Positions 15,640 through 15,987 of a DNA stretch of 38,421 nt are shown here, in pieces. Source of the DNA: a virus (Duplodnaviria; Heunggongvirae; Uroviricota; Caudoviricetes). Position 1 is the stretch's first letter. The number at the start of each line of letters is the position of its first letter. The notes below the pieces were generated by a model. The model did not search any database. It was not told where the DNA came from and saw only the letters and a list, made by a program, of their open reading frames with translations. The stretch is taken from IMG/VR virus record IMGVR_UViG_2703718837_000008, positions 1 to 38,421 of that record; one strand, 5' to 3'. A program made the translations under genes and the position numbers.

Positions 15640-15668
15640 TTGCAACATTGATTCCGTAACGTTATTAT
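15640..15668 (+). promoter_or_regulatory. Predicted sigma70 promoter for the tRNA array
   Basis: TTGCAA (15640-15645)-17-TATTAT (15663-15668), ~10 nt upstream of the first tRNA. Confidence 0.45.
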
Positions 15669-15677
15669 CCTGCGCTC

Positions 15678-15753
15678 GGCCCTTTAGCTCAGTGGTGAGA
15701 GCGAGCGACTCATAATCGCCAGGTCGCTGGTTCAAATCCAGCAAGGGCCACCA
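15678..15753 (+). tRNA. tRNA with CAU anticodon, probably tRNA-Ile2 (lysidine type; Met not excluded)
   Basis: 76 nt, manually folded. Acceptor GGCCCTT/AAGGGCC, D-stem GCTC/GAGC, anticodon loop CTCATAA, T-loop TTCAAAT, 3' CCA encoded. Resembles E. coli ileX as I recall it. Confidence 0.8.
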
Positions 15754-15754
15754 A

Positions 15755-15831
15755 CCGCCACTAGCTCATCAGGAAAGAGCGTCAACCCTTTAAGTTGAGT
15801 GTGCGAGGTTCGAGTCCCCGGTGGCGGTCCA
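15755..15831 (+). tRNA. Atypical tRNA-like gene, anticodon UUU by loop position (Lys-like) with C33
   Basis: 77 nt, manually folded. Acceptor CCGCCAC/GTGGCGG, D-stem GCTC/GAGC, perfect anticodon stem TCAAC/GTTGA, loop CCTTTAA, T-loop TTCGAGT with one T-stem mismatch, CCA encoded. C at position 33 and C1 are unusual. Confidence 0.5.
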
Positions 15832-15833
15832 GT

Positions 15834-15909
15834 GCCGACTTAGCTCAGTAGGTAGAGCAACTGACTTGTAATCAGTAGGTCACCAGTTCGATTCCGGTAG
15901 TCGGCACCA
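15834..15909 (+). tRNA. tRNA-Thr (anticodon UGU)
   Basis: 76 nt. Acceptor GCCGACT/AGTCGGC, anticodon loop CTTGTAA, T-loop TTCGATT, CCA encoded. Close to E. coli tRNA-Thr(UGU) as I recall it. Confidence 0.8.
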
Positions 15910-15912
15910 TAT

Positions 15913-15987
15913 GCGGGCATCGTATAATGGCTATTACCTCAGCCTTCCAAGCTGATGATGCGGGTTCGATTCCCGCTGCCCGCTCCA
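15913..15987 (+). tRNA. tRNA-Gly (anticodon UCC)
   Basis: 75 nt. Acceptor GCGGGCA/TGCCCGC, anticodon loop CTTCCAA, T-loop TTCGATT, CCA encoded. Matches E. coli tRNA-Gly(UCC) as I recall it. Confidence 0.8.

Follow-up and report, generated by a model that had tools for sequence, protein, structure and literature searches.

A four-tRNA cassette of a lambdoid Escherichia coli prophage and its argN-like second gene with anticodon UUU and C33

Lambdoid phages have long been known to carry a few tRNA genes after the late-gene antiterminator gene Q. The IMG/VR virus record IMGVR_UViG_2703718837_000008 (hereafter the window, meaning the whole 38.4-kb stretch of DNA that was analysed) carries four tightly packed tRNA genes at this place, and the second of them combines the anticodon UUU with a cytidine at position 33 (C33) of its anticodon loop. 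The locus therefore raises two questions: what kind of array this is, and whether its second gene is a working tRNA, a specialized one or a relic.

A tRNA cassette between Q and the lysis genes

ARAGORN, run over the whole window, detected exactly four tRNA genes, all on the + strand, with the anticodons CAU, UUU, UGU and UCC, and the Rfam tRNA family RF00005 (gathering score 29 bits) recovered these same genes with scores of 72.5, 44.4, 73.8 and 64.9 bits and E values from 4e-14 to 2e-6, far above chance. The first-pass annotation of this DNA, which was made from the letters alone, had proposed a four-tRNA array here, and both programs bear it out. The array spans 15678-15987, its intergenic spacers are 1, 2 and 3 nucleotides (nt) long, and CCA is encoded in all four genes. 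tRNA1 (15678-15753, +) is of the tRNA-Ile2 type (CAU), corresponds to ileZ of Shiga toxin 2 (Stx2) phages and is labelled tRNA-Ile in RefSeq. tRNA2 (15755-15831, +), an argN derivative, has UUU and C33 in the loop CCUUUAA and is called tRNA-Lys by the Prokaryotic Genome Annotation Pipeline (PGAP). tRNA3 (15834-15909, +), a tRNA-Thr(UGU), and tRNA4 (15913-15987, +), a tRNA-Gly(UCC), are identical in exact comparison to the K-12 host genes thrU (76/76) and glyT (75/75), respectively. Upstream, the array is bounded by Q (14771-15466, +; Pfam PF06323 Phage_antiter_Q, E = 2.5e-89, residues 6-221 of 231), and downstream by a lysis cassette that encodes a P21-type holin, lysozyme and Rz (16519-17695, +; Pfam Phage_holin_2_1 4.6e-35, Phage_lysozyme 9.6e-46, Phage_lysis 4.3e-50). 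It lies on the late-transcript strand between these boundaries, and the layout is identical in the Stx2a phage F349, so that the position is indeed the one where Stx-type phages keep tRNAs and toxin genes, as had been proposed. The window itself is a lambdoid prophage, and 65% of its first 25 kb is ~96% identical to the induced phage vB_EcoM-606R7. The array is phage-borne, the late-region tRNA cassette of a lambdoid E. coli prophage, and we consider the explanation given here for the locus as a whole likely.

In F349, the locus reads Q, ileZ, argN, argO, stx2A/B. tRNA1 is base-for-base the same as F349 ileZ, and the stretch from the promoter to tRNA2 (query 14-232) is 90.5% identical to F349. 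With the Stx2 cassette (933W / Stx2a_F349 type), the array shares its site (after Q and the late promoter pR', before stx or lysis genes), a promoter that differs by 1 nt, an identical ileZ in first place and a homologous second gene. By contrast, the second gene in the window has UUU and C33 together with two-sided stem changes, whereas F349 argN has UCG and U33; argO (Arg-UCU) stands there, host-identical thrU and glyT stand here; and no toxin gene lies downstream here. The location and the ileZ-plus-promoter features of the ileZ-argN-argO cassette are thus present, whereas the arginine tRNAs (UCG, UCU) expected as genes 2 and 3 are not, and on this comparison the array is best described as an architectural variant of the Stx-phage cassette, not a standard member.

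As a cassette it is ordinary, being common and already annotated in hundreds of genomes. Among 5,426 complete E. coli genomes, on which all complete-genome counts here are based, 371 carry the four-gene array at a coverage of at least 80%, with RefSeq annotating tRNA-Ile, tRNA-Lys, tRNA-Thr and tRNA-Gly. The four-gene array, with the exact tRNA2 allele, is also found in isolated temperate phages, and the four-gene type makes up 96 of the 125 arrays that we tallied from IMG/VR and annotated loci.

An arginine tRNA body with a UUU anticodon

By alignment, tRNA2 is a homologue of argN (tRNA-Arg, UCG) and is unrelated to host tRNA-Lys. The argN anticodon loop CUUCGAA has become CCUUUAA (U33C, C35U, G36U), which equals the host tRNA-Lys loop CUUUUAA save at position 33. 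The loop (C32-C33-U34-U35-U36-A37-A38) has the normal 7 nt and closes on a perfect 5-bp anticodon stem; in the cloverleaf of 7/4/5/5-bp stems, which begins with C1-G72, 20 of 21 pairs are standard, the sole exception being the T-stem mismatch A51·C63. All conserved bases are in place (the T loop GTTCGAnTC, U8, A14, G18G19, a purine at 37 and CCA) with the exception of U33, which is C33 in the window and in all >110 copies of the allele. The RF00005 score of tRNA2 is well above the family's gathering score (44.4 versus 29 bits, E = 2e-6), ARAGORN calls it tRNA-Lys(ttt), and PGAP labels the exact window sequence tRNA-Lys without a pseudogene flag; neither the lost pairing nor the failed detection of a pseudogene is seen in this allele.

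These results sort out the earlier suggestions about tRNA2. The oddities noted in the first pass (a perfect anticodon stem with C33, C1 and a T-stem mismatch) are all present, and of the three readings offered for them, non-canonical holds at C33. Suppressor-like does not, because UUU reads Lys codons and not stops, and neither does pseudogene, given that the window allele keeps its structure and is detected by ARAGORN, Rfam and PGAP. tRNAscan-SE, whose rejection of tRNA2 had been named as one possible refutation, calls it tRNA-Lys within PGAP. Nor do C1 and the T-stem mismatch mark the gene as atypical. F349 argN also has C1-G72, U73 and a T-stem A·C mismatch, and it scores 43.0 bits (tRNA2, 44.4; the commonest argN allele, 56.0). 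C1-G72, U73 and A51·C63 are thus inherited traits of the argN family, with only C33 and the anticodon new in tRNA2.

Because thermodynamic folding of single tRNAs gives no minimum-energy cloverleaf even for thrU and ileZ, we relied on covariation to assess the structure of tRNA2, fitting 42 distinct argN-family sequences (the gene after ileZ) to the cloverleaf and comparing them with 500 shuffles. Across the alignment, 96.4% of cells pair, none of the 500 shuffles reaches the observed covariation score, and shifting the stem partners along collapses the pairing. Three two-sided changes separate the argN clade from the UUU clade: 7:66 from U-A to C-G, 27:43 from C-G to U-A, and 30:40 from G-C to A-U. 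On the IMG/VR contig L129 lies a sister allele that combines UUU with the canonical U33 (loop CUUUUAU); its T stem is perfect, one more pair has changed on both sides (C4-G69 to U4-A69), and its minimum-energy fold is the cloverleaf. The three paired changes and the U33 sister allele indicate that the UUU clade evolved as a structured tRNA, within which C33 is a derived state. Taken together, the alignments identify tRNA2 as argN remodelled in place into a UUU-anticodon tRNA, its cloverleaf kept through two-sided changes.

A known parallel is tRNA anticodon shifting ('tRNA gene remolding'), for which most descriptions come from cellular and organellar genomes and in which anticodon substitutions change the decoded amino acid while the body is kept. 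Fitting intermediates occur among the sequences collected here: at L150 an argN body carries UCU, and at L129 a UUU body carries U33. In the window, the change lies inside a prophage cassette and is combined with U33C. Read in this way, tRNA2 offers a clear natural case of an arginine tRNA remodelled to a UUU anticodon in a phage cassette, with a rare C33. A literature search on ileZ/argN/argO or on a prophage Lys-Thr-Gly array returned nothing relevant, which is no proof of novelty because subscription journals were mostly outside the search.

To place the allele among its relatives, we sampled IMG/VR twice, with the tRNA2 T arm as the first anchor and ileZ as the second; the second scan was added because the T-arm anchor is biased toward intact tRNA2 copies. 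With Lys* denoting tRNA2 in its UUU/C33 form, IMG/VR yielded three types of array: Ile-Lys*-Thr-Gly, Ile-Lys*-Arg(UCU) and Ile-Arg(UCG)-Arg(UCU). The gene after ileZ is Lys* in ~110 cases (two scans), argN (UCG) with many alleles in ~70, a scrambled pseudo-argN without an ARAGORN call in ~27, a Lys*-derived gene with the anticodon arm deleted in 4, an argN/argO fusion in 3, an argN body with a UCU anticodon in 1 and an argO-like tRNA with a CCG anticodon in 1. Every Thr-Gly array has Lys* or its deletion derivative as the second gene, and Lys*-Arg(UCU) arrays exist too; from this we infer a history that would run from ileZ-argN-argO through ileZ-Lys*-argO to ileZ-Lys*-thrU-glyT.

The Lys* family is present in 798 of the complete genomes (~15%), in 279 of them at ≥99% identity and annotated as tRNA-Lys by PGAP, and it is found on at least three very different promoter backgrounds. 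The U33 sister allele occurs in ~13-20 complete genomes, and a search of IMG/VR for a U33 ancestor of Lys* found only the L129 contig. UUU, C33, A37 and A38 are invariant in >110 Lys* copies, and only position 32 of the loop varies. When one representative genome per species was scanned with the T-arm pattern, only E. coli and Shigella flexneri matched. The pseudo-argN form (L134, L139, L143, L172 and others, ~27 arrays) has intact acceptor and D arms, the anticodon arm AGACGACACGATAACAGGGTTGTTGG and the T loop GCGGG; conserved across many contigs, it may be more than simple decay.

Possible roles of the second tRNA

Codon usage accounts for the other three genes better than for tRNA2. Besides early and late phage genes, the window carries, in the nin region, a 752-aa open reading frame (ORF; 9834-12092, +) that has NACHT and NCH1 domains and is probably cargo, a bacterial anti-phage defence gene of the NACHT type. 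In early genes, late genes and this cargo gene, respectively, AUA makes up 19%, 13% and 44% of Ile codons, ACA 30%, 17% and 61% of Thr codons, GGA 25%, 17% and 31% of Gly codons, and AAA 74%, 67% and 76% of Lys codons; AGA reaches 41% of Arg codons in the cargo gene. Typical E. coli shares are ~7-8% for AUA, ~13% for ACA, ~11% for GGA and ~76% for AAA. The phage and its AT-rich cargo therefore use AUA, ACA and GGA 2-5x as much as typical E. coli genes (host values are those of K-12 codon tables). Ile2, Thr(UGU) and Gly(UCC) would add copies of tRNAs that have only one or two host genes and that read AUA, ACA and GGA, and the NACHT ORF would benefit from the array because its codon usage is extremely AT-rich. 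Codon supply thus fits the Ile2, Thr and Gly genes but not Lys: AAA, at 67-76% of Lys codons, is not above the host share, and the host has six Lys(UUU) genes (five of them seen in this analysis), so codon supply fails to explain tRNA2. The Asn(GUU)-Thr(UGU) pair found 3' of Q in SfI, Sf6, ST64T and P21 (PMC3636060) offers a parallel at the level of gene content. It differs in composition, but it is likewise a small tRNA set at the same late-leader position and includes Thr(UGU); in both, ACA bias explains the Thr gene and one member (Asn there, Lys here) is unexplained by codons.

On balance, we lean slightly towards a tRNA2 that is still folded, charged by lysyl-tRNA synthetase (LysRS) and able to decode, with C33 probably lowering its efficiency. 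A working tRNA2 would count as a rare bacterial case of a tRNA that functions with C33. Besides the lack of Lys demand, several observations weigh against this. Nearly all tRNAs have U33, and a weaker U-turn is to be expected with C33; LysRS prefers the discriminator A73, and tRNA2 has U73. PGAP makes no tRNA call for the two derived Lys* alleles that are commonest, one with a D-stem deletion of 1 nt and the other with U8C/C4U/C11U. The second gene is often dead, with pseudo-argN in ~27 ileZ-anchored arrays and the anticodon arm lost at 4 loci. Finally, stem substitutions after C33 comprise ~5 wobble-preserving and 3-4 pair-breaking changes, a near-equal split that does not demonstrate purifying selection on the C33 allele.

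The same observations feed a competing explanation, which we regard as possible but not likely: tRNA2 would be a functionless relic, an argN that lost its Arg identity through loop mutations, the damaging U33C among them, and that persists between useful neighbours in a 350-bp recombining block. C33 breaks a near-universal tRNA feature, the phage shows no Lys demand, and the second gene decays often in both clades (pseudo-argN, argN/argO fusions, anticodon-arm deletions), the commonest derived alleles carrying U8C or a D-stem deletion and receiving no PGAP call. However, decay fits poorly with the three two-sided changes relative to argN, with stems that are all four paired as well as or better than those of F349 argN, and with three loop changes that give the exact host tRNA-Lys loop save position 33, an outcome unlikely by random decay. 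The invariance of UUU, C33, A37 and A38 across the >110 copies also argues against a relic, and the U33 sister allele, with its extra two-sided change, shows structural constraint on the UUU clade. Although the Rfam score of tRNA2 is the lowest of the four and some phage annotations omit the gene, that score is not below that of the named argN, and tRNAscan-SE within PGAP reports a tRNA-Lys and not a pseudogene.

A more tentative explanation, to which we give slightly less credence, is counter-defence. tRNA2 would be a Lys(UUU) decoder on an Arg-type body, with an anticodon arm that escapes tRNA-Lys nucleases, so that translation of AAA/AAG could go on after a rival element had triggered them; the candidate nucleases are PARIS AriB of P4 satellites, P2 Old and perhaps PrrC. 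With UUU, tRNA2 has the anticodon found in AriB's prime target, in a minor target of Old and in the target of PrrC, as expected of a nuclease-resistant substitute. For AriB, U39A abolishes cleavage and A41C and U16C impair it (PMC12409363). AriB requires U39, C40, A41 and U16, whereas tRNA2 has G39, U40, U41 and C16; with U36-A-A-G-U-U41 and C16 it is non-permissive at all three tested positions and also lacks C40. P2-lambda interference has P2 Old as its effector, and this nuclease depends on CNG motifs that pair in the anticodon stem, at 28-30 and 40-42 (PMC12445682). The argN motifs are CAG/CUG, and the two-sided change from G30:C40 to A30:U40 in tRNA2 removes both at once, leaving CAA/UUG. 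PrrC cuts 3' of U33 (PMC2610378), and C33 lies exactly at this scissile position. The determinants are thus substituted, as read from the sequence, and tRNA2 is predicted to escape AriB and Old.

A precedent exists in T5, whose variant tRNA-Lys neutralizes PARIS (PMC11464382, PMC12409363). Like tRNA2, tRNA-Lys(UUU) of T5 is a phage tRNA with the anticodon of the main AriB target and has non-permissive bases at the AriB determinants, with a base other than U at position 39, a base other than A at position 41 and C at position 16. It differs in being a Lys-type molecule from a virulent phage with 23-24 tRNAs, whereas tRNA2 belongs to a temperate phage and joins an Arg-type body, a switched anticodon and C33, and its resistance is predicted. 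In the same direction point the absence of a codon-usage reason for a Lys gene and the Asn(GUU) and Thr(UGU) genes after Q in other lambdoid phages, of which Asn is unexplained by codon bias (PMC3636060): Lys, Thr and Asn form the AriB target set. The C33 allele, moreover, is in 798 genomes and the U33 sister allele in ~20, although such frequencies could stem from hitch-hiking and clonal sampling.

Several points tell against a counter-defence role. An Arg-derived body lacks Lys-specific motifs by default, so the absence of these motifs is weak evidence of selection. tRNA3 (Thr) has the host sequence with the AriB and Old motifs intact, and over-expressed host thrU gives little or no protection from Old. 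We therefore set aside an anti-nuclease role for tRNA3, given that host thrU does not rescue Old toxicity. U33C is without effect on another anticodon nuclease, gamma-toxin (PMC2275089), and this one analogue found does not support C33 as a general block to anticodon nucleases. Many derived tRNA2 copies are degenerate, and U73 is not the preferred Lys discriminator. The full version of the idea, in which a temperate phage turned a spare Arg gene into an 'orthogonal' Lys decoder unseen by AriB, P2 Old and PrrC and C33 is a selected functional departure, strikes us as doubtful, a shade more so than the counter-defence explanation itself. If true, the replacement of nuclease-targeted host tRNAs would extend from large virulent phages (T5) to temperate lambdoid phages, and it would bear on the classic P2-lambda rivalry, the mechanism of which was only recently shown to be tRNA cleavage. 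What likelihood the counter-defence and relic explanations leave falls to a working but unremarkable Lys tRNA.

It is very improbable that tRNA2 is a recoding tRNA, either a stop suppressor or a tuner of the -1 frameshift at A-AAA-AAG in the tail-assembly chaperone gene. A-AAA-AAG is a classic slippery site for tRNA-Lys(UUU), and an altered anticodon loop could change slippage; the chaperone ORF (26213-26599, +) ends GUU AAA AAA AAG UAG, and its -1 frame runs directly into the ORF at 26611-26901. However, no stop codon is complementary to UUU, and the anticodon loop has the normal 7 nt, features by which we rejected a suppressor. A link to frameshifting is pure speculation; such sites work with host tRNA-Lys in phages without tRNA genes. 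The site itself (26585-26611, +) is a G/GT-type programmed -1 frameshift in the tail-assembly chaperone gene.

Host-identical genes, promoters and neighbouring elements

That the Thr and Gly genes look host-like had been remarked in the first pass, and the exact comparison goes further, as both are fully identical to K-12 genes. This identity ends at the mature tRNA borders, beyond which the phage flanks are unrelated to the host flanks. The host operon (thrU-tyrU-glyT-thrT-tufB) runs thrU, 8 nt, tyrU, 116 nt, glyT, thrT, whereas the phage has thrU-TAT-glyT, lacks tyrU, thrT and tufB, and uses its own promoter. An origin of the array in faulty assembly or in stray copying of the thrU-tyrU-glyT-thrT operon, for which the base-for-base identity of tRNA3 and tRNA4 might speak, can be practically dismissed, because the identity stops at the mature ends, a 3-nt spacer stands in place of tyrU plus 124 nt, gene order and flanks are unlike those of the chromosome, and the array recurs in the complete genomes, isolated phages and tallied arrays counted above. 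The proposed comparison with a host operon, meant to expose a misassembly, thus leaves the array standing.

The spacer TAT is the remnant expected from one deletion, from thrU+1 to glyT-2, with a chance of ~6%. This is only suggestive of a thrU-glyT pair that came from DNA-level capture of the host operon, followed by trimming. In 12 of 95 prophage copies of tRNA4, the pair C6-G66 is replaced by U6-A66. Another array type, at L140:1974-2491, reads Thr(UGU), a ~210-nt gap, Ile2(CAU), Arg(CCG) and Gly(UCC), and in its Gly copy the glyT pair G5-C68 has become U5-A68, a two-sided change; the array shows that cassettes of this kind swap members freely.

A promoter TTGCAA-17-TATTAT had been claimed for the array, and a promoter scan found it at 15640-15668 (+), followed after the -10 by the GC-rich discriminator CCTGCGCTC; this putative dedicated tRNA promoter would start transcription 2-3 nt before tRNA1. 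Promoters of stable RNAs that are under stringent control have a discriminator of this type. In 212 arrays, the -35 TTGCA and the -10 TTATTAT are 90-99% conserved at a fixed spacing, whereas the spacer and the upstream sequence fall into several divergent haplotypes, and in 95 four-tRNA arrays the -10 TATTAT is invariant while nearly every adjoining position varies. A promoter-like match at 15901-15928 was discarded as chance, because it lies inside tRNA3/tRNA4 and its TATAAT falls within the glyT D loop.

In lambdoid phages, pR' lies just after Q and is followed by the strong terminator tR'. Consistent with this layout, a pR'-like sigma-70 promoter, TTGCAA-17-TATATT, overlaps the Q end (15450-15478, +; 9/12 matches in the promoter scan) and is the putative late promoter, and a tR'-like intrinsic terminator with a 9-10 bp GC-rich stem and a T8 run follows at 15530-15560 (+). 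The segment 15483-15562 folds at -25.3 kcal/mol (z = -3.0), and promoter and terminator together predict a short RNA of ~70 nt, analogous to StxS or the 6S RNA of lambda; the Rfam matches in the 15530-15560 region, to isrK/isrJ, all stayed below threshold. A terminator scan placed two tandem intrinsic terminator-like sites before the holin gene, at 16346-16365 (T8) and 16393-16410 (T5) on the + strand. This anatomy suggests that, in the lysogen, the stable-RNA-type sigma-70 promoter at 15640-15668 would transcribe the array and transcripts would stop at 16346-16415, before the lysis genes. During lytic growth, Q-modified polymerase from 15450-15478 would pass all terminators, and the array would be co-transcribed with the lysis and late genes. 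Given spacers of 1-3 nt and an encoded CCA, maturation would fall to RNase P and 3' exonucleases.

The ~500 bp 3' of the array had been described as noncoding, with terminators and no toxin gene. We likewise found terminator-like sites, no convincing ORF and no toxin gene there, but the region is not featureless: between the array and the holin gene lies a conserved, imperfect hairpin of ~85 nt (16109-16193, +). In RNAalifold with 11 homologues it shows 33 pairs and 8 two-sided changes. It folds at -34.6 kcal/mol on the + strand (z = -4.5) versus -21.4 on the - strand, and its many G·U pairs fit the + strand only. The hairpin matches no Rfam family. It is present in 381/5426 E. coli genomes, mostly unannotated, with 3 of 12 listed matches falling under 'hypothetical protein', and a T-run and the promoter-like ATTACA-18-TACAAT (16087-16116) come before it. 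We take it as a neighbouring leader element whose link to the array is putative. Several tandem copies of the STnc100 small-RNA family (77-132 bits) lie 3' of related arrays (L129:2265-3380 and L127:8044-8233), and none was detected in the window. Elsewhere in the same prophage are a hok/sok-type toxin-antitoxin locus (12593-12917, +), with an Rfam sok match of 111.7 bits and a 70-aa Hok-like ORF at 12705-12917, and the small RNA DicF (5256-5307, -; 73.5 bits).

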